IMG/VR virus record: IMGVR_UViG_3300033143_002397
Source of the DNA: an uncultured virus (IMG/VR IMGVR_UViG_3300033143_002397)
Taxonomy: Duplodnaviria > Heunggongvirae > Uroviricota > Caudoviricetes
Strand: one strand, 5' to 3'
DNA: 20,000 nt
This document shows positions 7,255 through 20,000 of the stretch, one piece after another. The position numbers and the translations under genes were made by a program. Under the pieces are notes generated by a model. It was not told where the DNA came from, did no database searches, and was given only the letters and a program-made list of their open reading frames with translations. Each line of letters begins with the position of its first letter. Within the stretch, counting starts at the first letter, position 1.

Positions 7255-9324
<2,070 letters not shown>

Positions 9325-11095: not shown

Positions 11096-11869
11096 CTACT
11101 CGGGATCGCCGACCGCTTCACTGGCGATCAACTCGACCAGAGTCTCGACCGCCCGGTCCGCGTTGGCCTGGGAGACATACAGCTCACCGTGCCCGATGAC
11201 CTCGTAGTTGGCGGCCTTGAGCCGGAAGTACCATTGCTGGCCGTTACTGGCCTCCAGGACCTCGTAGCGCTCGGGGAGGCGGCCGTTGGTCCTCACAGAC
11301 TCGACGCCGTTCAGAGCCCCGCTACGGGCCACGTAACCCTCGCTCTGGAGCATGATCTCGCCGTTGGCGGCTCGCAGATGGAAGTAGAACTGATCGTCCT
11401 GGCCCTTGAACAGCTCGAAGTGTGCCCCACCGGTCTCCGCAGCCTCGACCTGAACGTTCTGGATGATGAGGCCCTGGACGGTCTCGCTACCCCGCTCAGC
11501 GTTGGACTTGCTCACGTAAGTCTCGCTGGTGCCGACGATCTCATGGTTCTGGGCTACCAGATTGAAGTACCACTCGACGTTGGCCGCTTCGAGCAAGTCA
11601 TAGTTGCCCAGGTCCACGCCGTTGGCCTTGACCGACTCGATGCCGTTCGCGGCTCCTGCGAGGCTGACGTACCCCTCGCTGTGCAGGACCTTCTGGCCGT
11701 TGGCTGCGAGCAGGTGAAAGTAGAACTGGCCATCAACGCCCTCGAAGGTCTCGAAGACCCCTGGACTCTCGGTGACATGCTGCTCATCGGTGACGATGTC
11801 ATCGCCAGAGCAACCGACGAGGGCGAACGAGAAGGCGAGAGCTAGCAGACAAAGCAGGCGTGACATCAT
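11096..11869 (-). CDS. Predicted lipoprotein with four DUF1508/YegP (UPF0339) repeats
   Basis: Start MMSRLL after AAGGAG; signal peptide ending in lipobox LVGC; four repeats of (F/W)YF.L.A.N.....SE.Y.S...A..G..SV. Confidence 0.85.
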   Translation of the reverse strand: MMSRLLCLLALAFSFALVGCSGDDIVTDEQHVTESPGVFETFEGVDGQFYFHLLAANGQKVLHSEGYVSLAGAANGIESVKANGVDLGNYDLLEAANVEWYFNLVAQNHEIVGTSETYVSKSNAERGSETVQGLIIQNVQVEAAETGGAHFELFKGQDDQFYFHLRAANGEIMLQSEGYVARSGALNGVESVRTNGRLPERYEVLEASNGQQWYFRLKAANYEVIGHGELYVSQANADRAVETLVELIASEAVGDPE

Positions 11870-11916
11870 GAGCTTCTCCTTGGAGGTTCCGGGGACGCGA
11901 GGGCACAAGAGCAACC

Positions 11917-12375
11917 TCAATCATCCTCCATGAGGCGTTCCCACTTGGAAAGCCTCGTGGGCTCGGGCTCGGGCTGCGCCGGACACCAAGTGTTCGTCGC
12001 GATCTTCTGCATTTCCCGCTTCGTCTGCGGTCCCAGGAAGTTGTCCACAGGCAAACCCAGGACCTTTTGAACCTGAGAAATCACGTCTCGTCGGTCGCCC
12101 TCCCGACACTTGTGGACCACGAGCTGCTGCTCGTACACCTCGATGAGCCAACACGCTTTCTGACGAAAGACACTAGGGACGAGCAGCTGGTCGCCTACAG
12201 CGGCAACTCGCTGGCTCGCTGGGACAAGAACGGTGAGCCCCTCGTCTTCGACCCAGGCAAAGACGAACTCCGGGTACAGCTCAGCCAACTCACCGACGAG
12301 AGCCTCAGGGTTAGCTCCGGTCAAGAGCTGCTGCACGAGCACCCCAGCTCGACGAGCCTTCTGAGCGATGGGCAT
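11917..12375 (-). CDS. Hypothetical protein with a peptidoglycan-binding-domain-like segment
   Basis: 152 aa. QVQKVLGLPVDNFLGPQT resembles the Q..LGL.vDG..Gp.T PG-binding signature (tentative). YGGTGTA box 10 nt upstream. Confidence 0.65.
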   Translation of the reverse strand: MPIAQKARRAGVLVQQLLTGANPEALVGELAELYPEFVFAWVEDEGLTVLVPASQRVAAVGDQLLVPSVFRQKACWLIEVYEQQLVVHKCREGDRRDVISQVQKVLGLPVDNFLGPQTKREMQKIATNTWCPAQPEPEPTRLSKWERLMEDD

Positions 12376-12424: not shown

Positions 12425-13021
12425 CTAGGCCGCCGTGATGAAGGGCGTCCACTCGTCGGGCACCTGCTCTGGATTGAGCCGTGGTCCGGCCAGGGGCAGC
12501 ACCTTCGGCCGCCTTGGAACGCTGAGCAACATCATCCCCGCCTGCTCCGGGGTCTTGTCAGCCTTCCGGCTGTTGCAAGCGGTGCAGGCCATGACGATGT
12601 TGGTCCAGGTCGTGGGCGTGGTGGACTTCTTCCACTGCGCCTTTGGGACAACGTGCTCATACTCCAGCTGGCTGAGGGGCAGCTTGACACCGCAGTATTG
12701 GCACGAGAAGTTGTCCCGCAGGGCGACGTTGATCTTGGAGAACTTGATCCCTGTCTTCACCCTGCTCACCTGCCGACGCAGAACTGCGACGGCCGGGACC
12801 TTGATGGTGATCGACTCAGCATCCGTCCCGATGACCTGACGCAACGCCCTCCGCAGCTCGGGGAACGTGATCAGGTGGTTGCGGCCGATGACTGTCAGGA
12901 TCTCGTCGTACTGGGCCAGGACCTCCAACTTGCCGTTGAACATCCTCGTCACAGCATCCTTCCAGTCAGTGACCTCGTGGGGTCTGTAGGCTTGGTTCAA
13001 GATCAAGGTCTGTGTCCACAT
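12425..13021 (-). CDS. HNH endonuclease (McrA-like, with LN..Y.P...W..A N-terminal domain)
   Basis: RDNFSCQYCG...EHVVPK...WTNIVMACTACNSRKADKTPEQAGM. Confidence 0.92.
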   Translation of the reverse strand: MWTQTLILNQAYRPHEVTDWKDAVTRMFNGKLEVLAQYDEILTVIGRNHLITFPELRRALRQVIGTDAESITIKVPAVAVLRRQVSRVKTGIKFSKINVALRDNFSCQYCGVKLPLSQLEYEHVVPKAQWKKSTTPTTWTNIVMACTACNSRKADKTPEQAGMMLLSVPRRPKVLPLAGPRLNPEQVPDEWTPFITAA

Positions 13022-13133: not shown

Positions 13134-13137
13134 ATAG

Positions 13138-13484
13138 TGGAGACGCCGGGAATCGAACCCGGGTCCACGACGATTCCAGTCGTTCCTCGCTCACGTGCGT
13201 AGCCGCTCTACCCTCACGGCGGGGTCCCCAGTCTTCCCTGGGTGCCAGCTCCTGTAAATCTCGACTTTCCCTACTGAAGCGCTCGGGTCAGTCCAGCCCT
13301 AGTGGGTTGATGCCGGTGAGAGGACTACCAGGACGATCTCGTCCAACCGACAGCTCAGGCAGCGATGCCCAAAGCGGATGCGTTGTCGTTCGCAAATACG
13401 TGTTGCCCTGTTGATCGAGGCGGACTGGGCGCCGCCTGCACGTTCAGAATCACCTTCCTTGCCATGTCGAAGCCAATCGTCCCC
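13138..13484 (-). ncRNA. ssrA: tmRNA (one-piece); tag (A)ANDNASALGIAA at 13393-13355
   Basis: 5' GGGGACGAUUGGCUUCGAC pairs with 3' GGACCCGGGUUCGAUUCCCGGCGUCUCCA, including the G3.U70 Ala determinant. Internal reading frame GCG AAC GAC AAC ... GCU GCC UGA. CCA is not encoded (CUA follows). Confidence 0.96.
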
Positions 13485-14032: not shown

Positions 14033-14329
14033 CTACCAGCGACGCTCTTGCTGGACTAGCCGCCCGAAGAGCTTCCGCAGAGGCTTGATCCCCATGACGA
14101 CGAAGCCTTCTTGGAGGCCGGCGAACTCGCCTCCAGCTCGGGAGATGTAGGTCACCCGAGCCATGAGCCAACGCCGCGTGTAACGGCCTCGCTGGGGGTC
14201 GTATTCCTGGAGCTTGAGCCGGTCACCCACCTCAAAGCCCCGGTCGTCCTTCCGAAGCTCGTAACGCTTGAGGCCGGCTGCGATAGCATTGAAGCCGCTG
14301 GGCCAGGTCTTCAGCTCGTGCTCCTTCAT
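14033..14329 (-). CDS. ASCH/PUA-like protein (DUF3850-like)
   Basis: HELKTWP..F..I..G.K.YELRKDDRGFEVGD.L.L.E pattern. Confidence 0.85.
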   Translation of the reverse strand: MKEHELKTWPSGFNAIAAGLKRYELRKDDRGFEVGDRLKLQEYDPQRGRYTRRWLMARVTYISRAGGEFAGLQEGFVVMGIKPLRKLFGRLVQQERRW

Positions 14330-14634
14330 CTGTACTTCCCTCGCTTCTGCTGGTCCTTGGGACGCTCAATGTTGAGCCTCTTGCTAGGGTCCTGCTTGGC
14401 GATCCAGCGGATCATCTGCCGGAAGCGGTCATCAGCCATGAGGGCCTTGACCGTGCTGTACGTCGTCGCCAGCTCCTTGTTGGAGAAGAAGGCGTGGATA
14501 GCCCGATGACACGAGAGGCAGGAGTCCACCATGACCTCTCCCCCTTTGCCGCCACGACTCCGAGGCACCAGGTGGTGCCGCTTGAGGTGGACTGCGGGTC
14601 TCTTGCAGAAGGGACATGTCGGAAGCTCGACCAT
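14326..14634 (-). CDS. Small HNH endonuclease (YisB-like)
   Basis: CPFCKR...HHLVPRSRGG...CLSCHRAIHAFFSNKELA...WI; YGGTGTA box 10 nt upstream. Confidence 0.85.
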   Translation of the reverse strand: MVELPTCPFCKRPAVHLKRHHLVPRSRGGKGGEVMVDSCLSCHRAIHAFFSNKELATTYSTVKALMADDRFRQMIRWIAKQDPSKRLNIERPKDQQKRGKYR

Positions 14635-14660
14635 AGAAGTCTACTACACCACGAAGAAGT

Positions 14661-14999
14661 CAACGGGTTGTAAGCCGGGTCCTGTCAAGGATGATCATTC
14701 ATCTAGGAGTCGCGTTGCCACGACCCTCAAGCAGCCTACCCGGAAGCGTTGGGCGAGCGACCCCCTTCCTGTCTGGCCTTGCTTCAGATGGGTGCGCCGT
14801 GCCATCCCTGTTGCCAGGAACGCGGTGGGCTCTTACCCCACCCTTTCACCCTTACCCTGTGGCCGAAGCGACAGGGCGGTTTGCTTTCTGCTGCGTTTTC
14901 CTCGGGGTCACCCCCGACCGGGCGTTACCCGGCATCCTGCTCTGTGAAGCCCGGACTTTCCTCCCGCAGCCGAAGCTGCCGGCGATCATCTGCTCCCGT
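14661..14999 (-). ncRNA. rnpB: RNase P RNA, bacterial type A
   Basis: GAGGAAAGUCCGGGC (P4 5'), GGUAACGCC, AGAAAGCAAACCGCC, GGGUGAAAGGGUGGGGUAAGAGCCCACC, AGCAAGGCCA, GGGUAGGCUGCUUGAG (L15 GGU), UAGAUGAAUGAUC, and ACAGGACCCGGCUUA (P4 3'); P1 is CAACGGG/CCCGUUG. Confidence 0.96.
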
Positions 15000-15085
<86 letters not shown>

Positions 15086-15614: not shown

Positions 15615-15620
15615 AAATAG

Positions 15621-15692
15621 TCACTGGAGCCGGGATCGAACCGGCGACGCCCGCCGTATGAGAGCGGCGCTCTGCCTCTGAGCTACCCAGCG
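15621..15692 (-). tRNA. tRNA-Met(CAT), probably elongator
   Basis: Loop CU-CAU-AC; 1-72 is paired and the anticodon stem lacks the GGG/CCC run, so it is not an initiator; no encoded CCA. Confidence 0.85.
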
Positions 15693-15734: not shown

Positions 15735-16685
15735 GTGAAGACTCCCATCGCGAAAATTGAAGTAGGCTCTTCGACAGCCCTGAGCATCCTGTTGGTCGAG
15801 GACAACCCGACCGACCGAGAGCTGCTGCGCTACCTCCTTGAGGCTCGCCTTCACCCCTCGTCCCAGTTCTTTGAGGCGTCCAACCTCCAGGCGGCATTCC
15901 TTCACCTGGAACAGAACAACATCGACTGCGTGTTGCTCGACCTACGCTTGCCTGACTCAGCCGGCAAGGAAACGTTCGAGAAGCTCGCCGAGCTGTACCC
16001 CACGATCCCCATCATCGTCGTGACCCACACGAAGGATCGCGAGCTGGCCATCGAGATGATCAAGGCTGGCGCCGCTGACTACCTACTGAAGAGCTACACG
16101 GACGAGGACGCCATCTTCCAACGGATCATGCTCGCTGTCACCCGACACAAGCAGAACGTCCGGGTGTCACCCGATCAGGCTGGCATCTTCCAACGGCTCG
16201 ACAAGGCCCAGGCCAGCATCACAACCGCTCGACGACGACAGAGCCAAACAGAGCTTCAGGCCGCATCAGCAGACACAAACCACGCTATGGCCGACGTGTC
16301 CCGCCAGCTCTTCACCGATGTTCAGAGCCTCAAGCAGGTACTAGGTGAGCAGGCTGTCCGGCAAGAGCACATGCTGGACAGCGTGAAGATCTTGAACACG
16401 GAACTGCTTCACGGCCGCTCTGGGCGCCCATCCATGAAATCGCAGATGAACCTACTCGACCACCGCATGACAGCCGTAGAGGTCGGCGTGGGTAAGATGA
16501 AGCAGGATGCTGACGAGGCCGGGGACACCCAGCGAAGGGAAGCCCTCCAGCTCACAACAGCGAGGTGGAGCAACCGCACAAAGATCCTCGTCGCTGTCTT
16601 GGCTCTCGTGGGGGTCATCTCCACCGCAGCCGCCACCTACTTCGCGACCACCCACAAGCCCCCGGCAGCAGGAGCCCCGAAGTGA
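15735..16685 (+). CDS. Response regulator: receiver domain, helical/coiled-coil region, C-terminal transmembrane helix
   Basis: ILLVEDN, VLLDLRLPD (phospho-Asp), IIVVT, GAADYLLK; C-terminal ILVAVLALVGVISTAAATYFA. Confidence 0.88.
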   Translation: MKTPIAKIEVGSSTALSILLVEDNPTDRELLRYLLEARLHPSSQFFEASNLQAAFLHLEQNNIDCVLLDLRLPDSAGKETFEKLAELYPTIPIIVVTHTKDRELAIEMIKAGAADYLLKSYTDEDAIFQRIMLAVTRHKQNVRVSPDQAGIFQRLDKAQASITTARRRQSQTELQAASADTNHAMADVSRQLFTDVQSLKQVLGEQAVRQEHMLDSVKILNTELLHGRSGRPSMKSQMNLLDHRMTAVEVGVGKMKQDADEAGDTQRREALQLTTARWSNRTKILVAVLALVGVISTAAATYFATTHKPPAAGAPK

Positions 16686-17758
16686 CAAGCTCTGAGCACG
16701 AACGAGCCAGAGGCGAAGCCATCCTGGCCGCCATCCCCGACATCATCTTCGAGGTCGACAGCGAAGGGCGCTTCCTGTTCGTACACGCCCGACCGGGCCA
16801 GACCTTCGTCGAGAACGGCAAGATCATCGGCAAGCTCGTGACCGAGCTACTGCCCGAAACGGTTGCCTCTCAATGCGTGGACTGCATCACTGAGGTCCTC
16901 CGAACCCAAGAGGTCCAGACCCTCGACTACACGCTCCCCTACCCCAAAGGCGAGAGGTACTTTCGAGCACATCTGGGACCATCAGCCAAGGGCACTGTCG
17001 TGGCTGTCGTACGCAACGTCACGTCGGACAAGTGCCACCGGAGCAGGCTTGAACATCAGACCGAGCAGCTCCTAGAGGCCAACGAGAGCCTGGAGCAGTT
17101 CGTCCACGTAGCCTCACATGACCTACGTGAACCTCTCACCGGCATCGCTGGGTTCGCCACCCTTCTCCGCAAGCGCTACGGCGACGAGCTAGACGACAGC
17201 GGCCAGCACTTCCTGAACGAGATCATCGCTGGGACCAAGAGGATGGAGCAGAAGATCGAAGACCTCCTGGCCCTATCCCGAGCTGGGCGTGGGACACCCA
17301 ACGGTCCCTTTTCTCTGGGCTCAGCTATCGAGGAAGCTCGTCGTAGCCTCGTCAGGGCCTTCAAAGAATCGGGGGCAGTCCTCCAAACAAGCGAGCTACC
17401 CACGGTCCGAGGGGACCGCAGCATGATCGCCCAGGTCTTCCAGAACCTCTTCAGCAACAGCATCAAGTATCACCCGGAAGGAGTGAAGCCAGTCATCGAG
17501 ATCGAGGTCCTACCCGACTCAGACCCCAAGATGGTCCACGTCGCGGTCACCGACAACGGTATTGGATTCTGCATGGACCACGCTGACCGGATCTTCGGGA
17601 TCTTCCAGCGGCTCTACACGATAGAGCAGTACCCAGGGACGGGCATCGGACTCGCCATCGCCAAGAAGATCGTCGAGAAGCAAGGAGGTCGTATCTGGGC
17701 CTCTTCGGAGCCCTCGAAAGGGTCCACGTTTCACTTCACCTTGCAGAAGGCCACGTAA
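16682..17758 (+). CDS. Cytoplasmic PAS-domain sensor histidine kinase (Cph1/bacteriophytochrome-type kinase core)
   Basis: GTG start overlapping the upstream stop (GTGA). PAS (ILAAIPDIIFEVDSEGRF), H-box ASHDLREPL, N-box FQNLFSNSIKY, G1 DNGIG, F-box IFGIFQRL, G2 GTGIGLA. Confidence 0.93.
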   Translation: MTSSEHERARGEAILAAIPDIIFEVDSEGRFLFVHARPGQTFVENGKIIGKLVTELLPETVASQCVDCITEVLRTQEVQTLDYTLPYPKGERYFRAHLGPSAKGTVVAVVRNVTSDKCHRSRLEHQTEQLLEANESLEQFVHVASHDLREPLTGIAGFATLLRKRYGDELDDSGQHFLNEIIAGTKRMEQKIEDLLALSRAGRGTPNGPFSLGSAIEEARRSLVRAFKESGAVLQTSELPTVRGDRSMIAQVFQNLFSNSIKYHPEGVKPVIEIEVLPDSDPKMVHVAVTDNGIGFCMDHADRIFGIFQRLYTIEQYPGTGIGLAIAKKIVEKQGGRIWASSEPSKGSTFHFTLQKAT

Positions 17759-18282
17759 TGCCTAACGAAAAAGTCAGCGTCCTCTTGGTCGAGGACAGCC
17801 GCACCGACGCAGAACTCATCGCCGAGGCGCTCAAAGACTCAAAGCTGCCTCATCGACTAGACCTGGCCACCGACGGAATCGCGGCCCTGAAGTACCTCGC
17901 GGACAACGACCGGCCACACCTCATCCTGCTCGACCTCAACCTCCCCAAAAAGTCGGGGTTGGAGGTCCTTCGAGAGATCAAGCAAGACACCGACCTCTGC
18001 ATCATTCCCGTCGTCATCCTGACCAACTCCGAGTCCAAGAAGGATGTGACCCAGTGCTACGAGAGCTTCTGCACGACCTACATCCGCAAGCCGTTGCACT
18101 TCGAGGACTGGGTAGCCACCCTCAACTGCCTGTCGCACTTCCTGTTTCGAGTAGCGACACTCCCCCATGAATCCCCGCTGCTCAAGCGACGAGGTTGCCT
18201 CGTGAGTGCCTGGGTCGAGCCCAGGTCGTCAAGGCGGCCCCCTCCCAAAAAGAAGCGGGCCAAGAAGCGGGCCAAGAAGTAG
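17758..18282 (+). CDS. Single-domain response regulator (Rcp1-like) with basic C-terminal tail
   Basis: VLLVEDS, LILLDLNLPKKSGLEVL, IPVVILT, YIRKP; TAATG coupling to the kinase. Confidence 0.92.
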   Translation: MPNEKVSVLLVEDSRTDAELIAEALKDSKLPHRLDLATDGIAALKYLADNDRPHLILLDLNLPKKSGLEVLREIKQDTDLCIIPVVILTNSESKKDVTQCYESFCTTYIRKPLHFEDWVATLNCLSHFLFRVATLPHESPLLKRRGCLVSAWVEPRSSRRPPPKKKRAKKRAKK

Positions 18283-18356
18283 CCTCCCCGAGAAGATTCG
18301 AACTTCTGACCTCTTGCTTCGGAGGCAAGCGCTCTATCCAGCTGAGCTACGGGGAG
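18283..18356 (-). tRNA. tRNA-Arg(CCG)
   Basis: CUUGC-CU-CCG-AA-GCAAG; D-loop GGAUA (A20); no encoded CCA. Confidence 0.93.
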
Positions 18357-18905: not shown

Positions 18906-18934
18906 TTGACTTAGGGTGTAGGTCCGTGTAGGGT
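18906..18934 (+). promoter_or_regulatory. Candidate sigma70-type promoter TTGACT-N17-TAGGGT
   Basis: -35 at 18906-18911 and -10 at 18929-18934, upstream of ORF 18963. Confidence 0.5.
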
Positions 18935-18957
18935 TGGGTGTAGGTCCGTGTAGGGTT
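18914..18957 (+). repeat. Perfect 22-bp tandem repeat (GGGTGTAGGTCCGTGTAGGGTT x2)
   Basis: Read directly: 18914-18935 and 18936-18957. Confidence 0.9.
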
Positions 18958-19468: not shown

Positions 19469-19738
19469 ATGGACATGGTCACACGAGTGGTGCGACGCTT
19501 CATGGCTTTCAAGTACGTGCCGAAAGAGAAGAAGAAGGCGAAGGTGGACCGCCTCACGAAGGTCATCCGAGAGAAGACCGGCGTGAGCCGTGGGACCGCC
19601 GAGGACATCGCCGACGCCATCGTGCGAAACCGCGATGTCGAACGCCTGGCACGCCAAAAGAGCTGGCCCATCGAGGACGGAACCATCGAAGGGCCGAAGG
19701 GCCAGATCACGATCAAGGCTATACGGGACCAGCTGTGA
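19469..19738 (+). CDS. Hypothetical basic protein
   Basis: 89-aa ORF coupled (GTGA) to the next gene. Confidence 0.7.
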   Translation: MDMVTRVVRRFMAFKYVPKEKKKAKVDRLTKVIREKTGVSRGTAEDIADAIVRNRDVERLARQKSWPIEDGTIEGPKGQITIKAIRDQL

Positions 19739-20000
19739 GGATCCTGATCGTCGAGGACAACCCCGCCGACCGCGAACTACTCGTCTTCACGCTCCAAGAG
19801 CACTTCAAGACTGAGGCCAAGTTCCGCGAAGCATACGACCTGGAGGGAGCCCACAGCTACCTCCAGCGAGGTGGGGTTGACGCTGTCGTCCTCGACCTCC
19901 AGCTACCAGACAGCTCGGGCCTCGATACCTTCACGAGGATCCACAAGGCGTACCCTCATCTGCCCATCATCGTTGTGACCCACAACATCGACCTGGACCT
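19735..20000 (+). CDS. Response regulator receiver domain (runs off the right end); paralogue of 15735-16685
   Basis: Manual translation from GTG 19735: MRILIVEDNPADRELL...VDAVVLDLQLPDSSGLDTF...YPHLPIIVVTHN. Confidence 0.9.
   Translation, partial: MRILIVEDNPADRELLVFTLQEHFKTEAKFREAYDLEGAHSYLQRGGVDAVVLDLQLPDSSGLDTFTRIHKAYPHLPIIVVTHNIDLD

Follow-up and report, generated by a model that had tools for sequence, protein, structure and literature searches.

Within the 20,000-nucleotide stretch of DNA analyzed here (the window; IMG/VR record IMGVR_UViG_3300033143_002397, an uncultured virus of the Caudoviricetes), three overlapping genes at positions 15735–18282 encode a membrane-anchored receiver protein (ORF1; ORF, open reading frame), a soluble histidine kinase (ORF2), and a single-domain receiver of the Rcp1 type (ORF3). 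The explanation that we favor overall, with some reserve, is that this cassette is a functional two-component set owned by a clade of huge tailed phages. Comparison with relatives established that the parts have remained intact and have been passed on together as one block under purifying selection, and that the membrane module of ORF1 is part of a phage family whose members also occur as small proteins on their own. Judged from the sequences, it is very likely that the cassette works as an autonomous phage system, and somewhat more probable than the opposite that ORF1 is the output of the kinase rather than its input. The lineage probably reads the state of the infected cell and acts at the membrane.

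Sensing of the host by phages is generally ascribed to a small number of repressors or short peptides. In the present case, an entire clade of huge phages keeps a complete kinase–receiver set under selection, with a candidate membrane-anchored output that has no cellular counterpart. The cassette defines a new response-regulator output module. It also gives a tangible, clonable system in which to ask what a virus senses within the cell and how this sensing becomes a decision. Its kinase and receivers are small and, apart from one helix, soluble.

The cassette and its phage carriers

The three genes lie on the + strand and overlap by 4 nt (ORF1/ORF2, GTGA) and 1 nt (ORF2/ORF3, TAATG). The start of ORF2 was placed at the GTG at 16682 in preference to the longest-frame start at 16565, a choice backed by a database twin of 358 amino acids (aa) (P0127) and by an identical 4-nt overlap in a relative (L001). 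A preliminary description of this DNA had presented the genes as a complete, coupled operon with intact catalytic motifs, whose last stop codon abuts tRNA-Arg(CCG) and whose products lack a DNA-binding output domain. ORF calls, Pfam searches, and a motif check proved this description accurate. Pfam assigned Response_reg domains to residues 18–128 of ORF1 (E 1e-22) and 8–122 of ORF3 (E 9e-19), and PAS_4 (16–111), HisKA (137–203, 2e-16), and HATPase_c (244–356, 6e-25) domains to ORF2. No second Pfam domain was detected in ORF1, and none of the three proteins was found to have a DNA-binding domain. A sigma-70 promoter scan returned 0 sites, and the PADLOC defence models gave receiver-level matches only (E 1e-4 to 1e-7).

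The catalytic residues are those of a classical HisKA-type kinase and two canonical receivers. ORF2 has its H box histidine at H146 (17117–17119) and its N, G1, F, and G2 boxes at 255, 291, 305, and 319. Both receivers have the acidic pocket, the phospho-acceptor Asp, the Thr/Ser, and the Lys; the phospho-acceptors are D69 of ORF1 (15939–15941) and D59 of ORF3 (17932–17934, with its context kept). ORF2 has no hydrophobic segment (best Kyte-Doolittle (KD) score 0.98) and is thus predicted to be soluble, and ORF1 has a single hydrophobic helix at residues 284–302 (KD 2.23). The earlier proposal of one membrane-anchored receiver and a soluble kinase was in this way supported by hydropathy, as well as by the relatives.

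A protein search placed a twin of ORF1 on a 72,775-b contig and other relatives on contigs of up to 466 kb. In IMG/VR, 10 contigs (82–452 kb) carry a full-length ORF1 relative, and searching these with the window proteins (tblastn) recovered the triad of ORF1, kinase, and ORF3 in all 10, always on a single strand and in an unchanged order, at identities of 35–50%, 36–64%, and 40–54%, respectively. The search of viral genomes for the same synteny, which had been suggested as a check, thus returned the full triad. Five of the genomes were searched whole, and each contained exactly one HATPase_c domain and 2–3 receivers. One of the carriers (G003; 437,331 b) has direct terminal repeats and is 100% complete according to CheckV, and another (G004; 451,925 b) was rated 94% complete. 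Terminase_6N, Terminase_6C, and Phage_sheath_1 were absent from the five relatives’ genomes in Pfam searches, and TerL_ATPase gave only 17.5 bits; a PHROG scan around this weak hit in G001, the contig of L001, detected a terminase large subunit (phrog_2, 1.4e-16) together with a portal (phrog_16240, 7e-25). The GroEL encoded in the window is 61–70% identical to a gene in 5/5 huge-phage genomes, where it lies a few kb from their cassette. Among the matches listed for GenBank phage records, its identity was at most 48%. The window had no DNA match in GenBank phages, and an exact 51-mer taken from it did not occur in IMG/VR. We regard the window as a piece of one of the huge tailed phages (about 370–450 kb) that make up this clade.

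The region could instead be cellular DNA, or host genes that were captured recently, are decaying, and play no part in the phage. Consistent with this, and counting against our own explanation, the window holds genes of cellular type only (ligase, ribonucleotide reductase, clamp loader, GroEL, RtcB, tRNAs, transfer-messenger RNA (tmRNA), and RNase P RNA) and no virion gene, so that its viral identity is drawn from the terminase, portal, and terminal repeats of its relatives. These same features speak against a cellular origin, as do the intact motifs and a guanine-plus-cytosine (GC) content of 0.59–0.61 in the cassette, the same as in its flanks (0.56–0.65 over the window). Selection is also visible against an 86%-identical relative: across the 185 ORF1 codons covered by L103, a short contig with 84% DNA identity, the ratio of nonsynonymous to synonymous substitution rates (dN/dS) was 0.128 at a dS of 0.61, indicating purifying selection. 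Finally, a scan of 185,579 prokaryote species genomes yielded no full-length relative of ORF1; it used one genome per species and family-typical receiver-domain patterns, so that very distant forms could be missed, and its 43 loci were all receiver-only matches. Cellular DNA or a decaying capture is therefore highly improbable and largely refuted already. The synteny in 10/10 contigs and the dN/dS of 0.13 likewise answer the concern, raised at the outset, that the operon might be non-viral or decaying.

The preliminary description had further regarded the cassette as inserted into a tRNA island, which the relatives do not support. Opposite-strand tRNA genes flank the cassette in 6 of the 9 relatives examined (L001, L003, L005, L006, L010, and L011); in L004 and L008 they do not flank it, and in L009 the distance is 3.7 kb. 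A tRNA-Arg(CCG) gene directly 3′ of ORF3 is also found in L006 and L011, and L103 shares the upstream tRNA array. This shared placement, together with a GC content equal to that of the flanks, indicates that the arrangement is inherited. By these comparisons, the cassette is an inherited part of the genome, neither an insertion peculiar to this phage nor a decaying capture.

The membrane-anchored receiver and its relatives

An AlphaFold model of ORF1 (predicted local distance difference test, pLDDT, 79) consists of the receiver, helices at residues 146–167, 171–226, and 234–275, and a final helix at 280–306, with a conserved loop at 227–233 (GRSGRPSMKSQ) between the second and third of these helices. 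Database searches returned approximately 78 clusters of full-length relatives (E 1e-197 to 5e-45), of which 76 have one carboxyl-terminal hydrophobic segment, ending a median of 16 residues before the carboxyl terminus. In an alignment of 34 relatives, E22, D23, D69, T97, and K119 are invariant, and the loop motif GRPSMRSQxDLLxHR and the carboxyl-terminal hydrophobic stretch are kept. A metagenome scan for further relatives was swamped by generic receivers, with only about 5 of 80 loci being true family members.

For the carboxyl-terminal module, a profile of the last 177 residues was run over 1.84 billion representative proteins. It found two groups: receiver-fused forms, and stand-alone proteins (E 1e-8 to 1e-3) of 126–173 aa, composed of a helix, a ‘GNGQPSL’ loop, a second helix, and a carboxyl-terminal membrane helix. 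Aligned with each other (A3 versus A7), the two groups are clearly homologous (hhalign Prob 99.1, E 1.4e-18, 130 columns).

A tblastn search with one member of the small family led to Microcoleus phage My-WqHQDG (OR578706.1, 88856–91946), where the match adjoins the only kinase match of the genome. Four overlapping + strand genes are found there among − strand genes, so that, as in the window, the cassette runs opposite to its neighbors. In order, they encode a PAS kinase (33% identical to ORF2, 1.5e-33), a receiver resembling ORF3 (30%, 3e-8; BLASTP), a second receiver resembling that of ORF1 (31%, 1e-5), and a 179-aa hypothetical protein. The latter has a GNGQPS loop and a hydrophobic helix, and aligns with the small family at 95% (hhalign, E 2.8e-8). 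There are also differences: the gene order is not the same, the kinase has an N-terminal hydrophobic segment, the genome measures 163 kb, and receiver and membrane module are separate genes in My-WqHQDG, whereas they are fused in ORF1. That ORF1 corresponds to a fusion of two neighboring genes of this phage provides independent evidence that the receiver and the membrane module work together.

Two other proteins, P0224 and P0237 (492 aa), show a different fusion, in which an ORF1-type receiver (58–64% identical) is joined to the N-terminus of a PAS kinase without the membrane module. P0237 is located on a 323,560-b contig, and an IMG/VR scan with this form found nothing. These fusions tie the ORF1-type receiver to the kinase and fit either direction of control.

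A receiver followed by a long coiled coil is also known from FrzS and AglZ of Myxococcus, whose output runs via protein contacts and not via DNA binding. These proteins, which we liken to ORF1 by description only, are cellular and have no membrane anchor. A fold search with the full ORF1 model retrieved receiver domains only.

No phage- or virus-encoded histidine kinase or two-component cassette was found in the literature searched, although supplementary tables, which lay outside the search, may list such genes. By term search, the jumbo-phage review PMC7824862 yielded only a divergent receiver unrelated to kinases. The main texts of three huge-phage papers (PMC7162821, 10.1101/2025.02.27.640493, and PMC11748809) returned no two-component terms, and the text of the My-WqHQDG preprint (10.1101/2023.04.12.536658) none of the signalling terms searched.

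The kinase, a proposed mechanism, and its alternatives

The kinase core is well conserved among relatives: the best 120 in the database all had E < 1.4e-77, with cores 54–67% identical. The sensor domain is far less constant. Only 33 of these 120 share the PAS type of the window, and others carry PAS_3, PAS_9, or two PAS domains. Of the 120, 28 are at most 270 aa long; no PAS domain is recorded for those listed, and some of them may be cut gene calls. Similarly, the alignment between ORF2 and the kinase of L001 is confined to the core (62% identity). The sensor domain thus appears to have been swapped between relatives while the kinase core was kept. A QCVDC cysteine pair in the PAS region had been proposed to take part in sensing an intracellular cue, and was considered here as a redox sensor. 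Within the 33 PAS-sharing relatives, however, conservation of the first cysteine is limited to the nearest sequences and that of the second to a few, and we rejected this candidate.

Among solved structures, the best matches to the kinase core include bacteriophytochrome kinases, and ORF3 is most similar in sequence to 5te9 (2e-30), Rcp1 (1i3c, 5e-28; also 1jlk), and RcpA (1k68). Like the Cph1/Rcp1, CphA/RcpA, and bacteriophytochrome pairs, the cassette combines this type of HisKA core with an overlapping downstream single-domain receiver. Unlike the kinases of these pairs, this one has a single PAS_4 domain and lacks the GAF and PHY parts of a PAS-GAF-PHY bilin-binding photosensory module (no Pfam match). 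The cassette further differs in being carried by a phage and in having two additional receivers of another type, one of them membrane-anchored.

ORF3 ends in a tail of 38 residues, 13 of which are K/R (18168–18279, +; …PPPKKKRAKKRAKK), that reaches the tRNA gene. This basic tail is absent from 9/9 ORF3 relatives, whose tails are 2–18 residues long and non-basic. Read-through could have added it, or it could serve this lineage as a nucleic-acid-binding tail.

In the mechanism that we propose, the PAS domain of the soluble kinase would bind a cue in the host cytoplasm, upon which the kinase would autophosphorylate on H146. The kinase would then transfer the phosphate to D69 in ORF1, to D59 in ORF3, and probably also to the receiver encoded by a fourth gene (Table 1). 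Phosphorylation of the ORF1 receiver would change its dimer, and helix alpha-5 would relay this change to the helical hairpin and on to the membrane helix. The resulting repacking of helices would switch how the module oligomerizes or binds partners at the cytoplasmic membrane, on its inner face. Acting as sinks, both single-domain receivers would compete for phosphate and so set a threshold and a delay. The output would therefore be a membrane-located step of infection, and not transcription.

Several results weigh against this reading. The carboxyl-terminal model of ORF1 gave 0 matches at E ≤ 0.001 in BFVD and PDB, Pfam returned coiled-coil noise only for the module, and no conserved cofactor motif was seen in the PAS domain across the 33 relatives that share it. 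In addition, the receiver–kinase fusions P0224 and P0237 fit an ORF1-type receiver acting upstream of the kinase equally well. The membrane-anchored receiver would then be an input or scaffold that holds the kinase at the membrane and gates it, in the manner of the N-terminal receivers of receiver-PAS-kinase proteins, with the output running through protein contacts of the Rcp1-type receiver. This is an unlikely alternative, though the strongest of those we weighed. In its favor, the receiver is attached N-terminally to the PAS kinase in the fusions, the ORF1 gene lies upstream of the kinase gene and is coupled to it, and the kinase core and ORF3 resemble the cognate Cph1/Rcp1 type. On the other hand, the ORF1 receiver has kept every phospho-acceptor residue in 34/34 aligned relatives, and in My-WqHQDG it is with the membrane protein that the ORF1-like receiver is coupled, the kinase being two genes away.

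Alternatively, the cassette could act on host signalling and so reprogramme the cell, with the kinase phosphorylating host response regulators or the receivers withdrawing phosphate from host kinases. A ratio of three receivers to one kinase would be in keeping with phosphate sinks, and no DNA-binding output of the phage is present. Co-inheritance of kinase and receivers in 10/10 contigs fits a self-contained set, and we hold an action on host signalling to be quite unlikely, more so than a gating role for ORF1.

The most far-reaching version of the proposed membrane output is an ‘inside-out’ device in which the tail-anchored receiver, through a module from a phage-only family, would switch a membrane event such as the onset of permeabilisation or lysis, and in which swaps of the PAS domain would retune the cue to each host. 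If so, the phage would decide by two-component signalling when to open its host, but we consider this version doubtful, only slightly less so than an action on host signalling. The protein compared here is XhlA of the Bacillus prophage PBSX; according to PMC5589764, it is a membrane protein believed to work with the holin XhlB, and lysis requires it. As a small coiled-coil protein with a carboxyl-terminal membrane helix, XhlA (PF10779) resembles the ORF1 module, and it was a weak Atlas lead (0.77; no Atlas score for the module was above 0.80). ORF1 differs in having no direct profile match and neither a holin nor an endolysin beside it. PF10779 matched none of 10 ORF1 carboxyl termini at E ≤ 10, and no lysis gene was found among the ORFs of the window.

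The PHROG ‘hemolysin’ profiles, which we take to be of the XhlA kind, gave mixed results. Two of them (phrog_937 and phrog_1193) matched 5 of 18 stand-alone relatives (best E 1.6e-6) and 0 of 3 ORF1 carboxyl termini, and the profiles gave no match at the place of ORF1 in five huge-phage genomes at E ≤ 1. They are also unspecific, with matches in 13–14 of 14 control genomes. Of the 37 IMG/VR loci of stand-alone relatives, which, judged by near-identical matches, are mostly one group of phages of approximately 200 kb by completeness estimate, 10 have a lysozyme-like gene, at a distance of 7.5–8.9 kb, and none has an SLT gene; no receiver occurs in any of their records. The neighbor that was checked is an Ntn-amidotransferase-like gene. 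As direct profile and neighborhood checks gave no support, the XhlA-like lysis reading of the module was considered but is not put forward as a finding.

Other genes and RNAs of the window

The coordinates of the cassette and of the features next to it are collected in Table 1.

Table 1. Genes and modules of the cassette and its immediate neighborhood
Feature	Coordinates	Strand	Description and basis
ORF1	15735..16685	+	316 aa; receiver, coiled coil, and carboxyl-terminal membrane helix; Pfam, AlphaFold, family alignment
ORF1 carboxyl-terminal module	16272..16652	+	Homologous to stand-alone tail-anchored coiled-coil phage proteins; profile search, hhalign
ORF2	16682..17758	+	Soluble PAS_4-HisKA-HATPase_c histidine kinase; Pfam, motif check
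ORF3	17758..18282	+	174 aa; Rcp1-type single-domain receiver; Pfam, PDB sequence matches
89-aa protein gene	19469..19738	+	Stop overlaps next start (GTGA); conserved in relatives
Fourth gene	19735..20000	+	GTG start; stand-alone receiver paralogous to that of ORF1; truncated by the end of the window
tRNA-Met	15620..15692	−	42 nt upstream of ORF1, opposite strand
tRNA-Arg(CCG)	18282/18283..18356	−	Abuts ORF3 stop (18280–18282)

The third receiver that the preliminary description had counted is real: it starts at the GTG that follows the conserved 89-aa gene. The small gene followed by a stand-alone receiver recurs in L004 and L011, where the receivers are 153–157 aa long, and the small gene occurs alone in L006 and L009. 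The two are coupled in three genomes, and the L006 version of the small protein has an added zinc ribbon. The family shares the motif ETGLSxGxAEDIADAxVRGRD…QKGWPIEDG (the L004 homologue has 97 aa, at 8553–8846) and has no counterpart among Pfam or PHROG families. By eye, the 89-aa protein seemed to contain a helix-turn-helix, but Pfam gave this no support.

The other genes of the window are all on the − strand, opposite to the cassette. They encode an NAD-dependent DNA ligase, a class II ribonucleotide reductase, two clamp-loader subunits, GroEL, and RtcB, as well as an RNA island, within which the cassette lies, of tmRNA, class A RNase P RNA, and 13 tRNA genes. Interleaved with the RNA genes, at 11096–11920, 12425–13021, and 14033–14634 (−), are genes for a protein with four DUF1508 repeats (2e-62), two HNH endonucleases, and a DUF3850 protein (ASCH-like, RNA-binding). 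In G004 (C1:32344–33960), the GroEL homologue lies in a 701-aa open frame read through one TAG, which could reflect a sequencing error, a frame artefact, or stop-codon reassignment.

The RNase P RNA is a full-length bacterial class A form (14657–15001, −; RF00010, 265 bits, E 2e-86). It is absent at the loci of 10 relatives, among them L103, which skips exactly this stretch. That a phage carries it looks unusual, and among the papers listed by a literature search on it none held the term ‘RNase P RNA’. The tmRNA (13135–13484, −; 113 bits) has the tag ANDNASALGIAA and is followed by a strong 15-pair terminator (13133–13098). tmRNAs with ANDN... tags are also found upstream of the cassette in L001, L003, L006, and L010. 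As the cassette runs antisense to the island of tRNA, tmRNA, and RNase P RNA genes, expression of the two may be mutually exclusive. Finally, a unit of approximately 22 nt (GGGTGTAGGTCCGTGTAGGGTT), spotted by eye, is repeated twice in tandem at 18912–18957 (+), between a tRNA-Glu gene and a 55-aa ORF.

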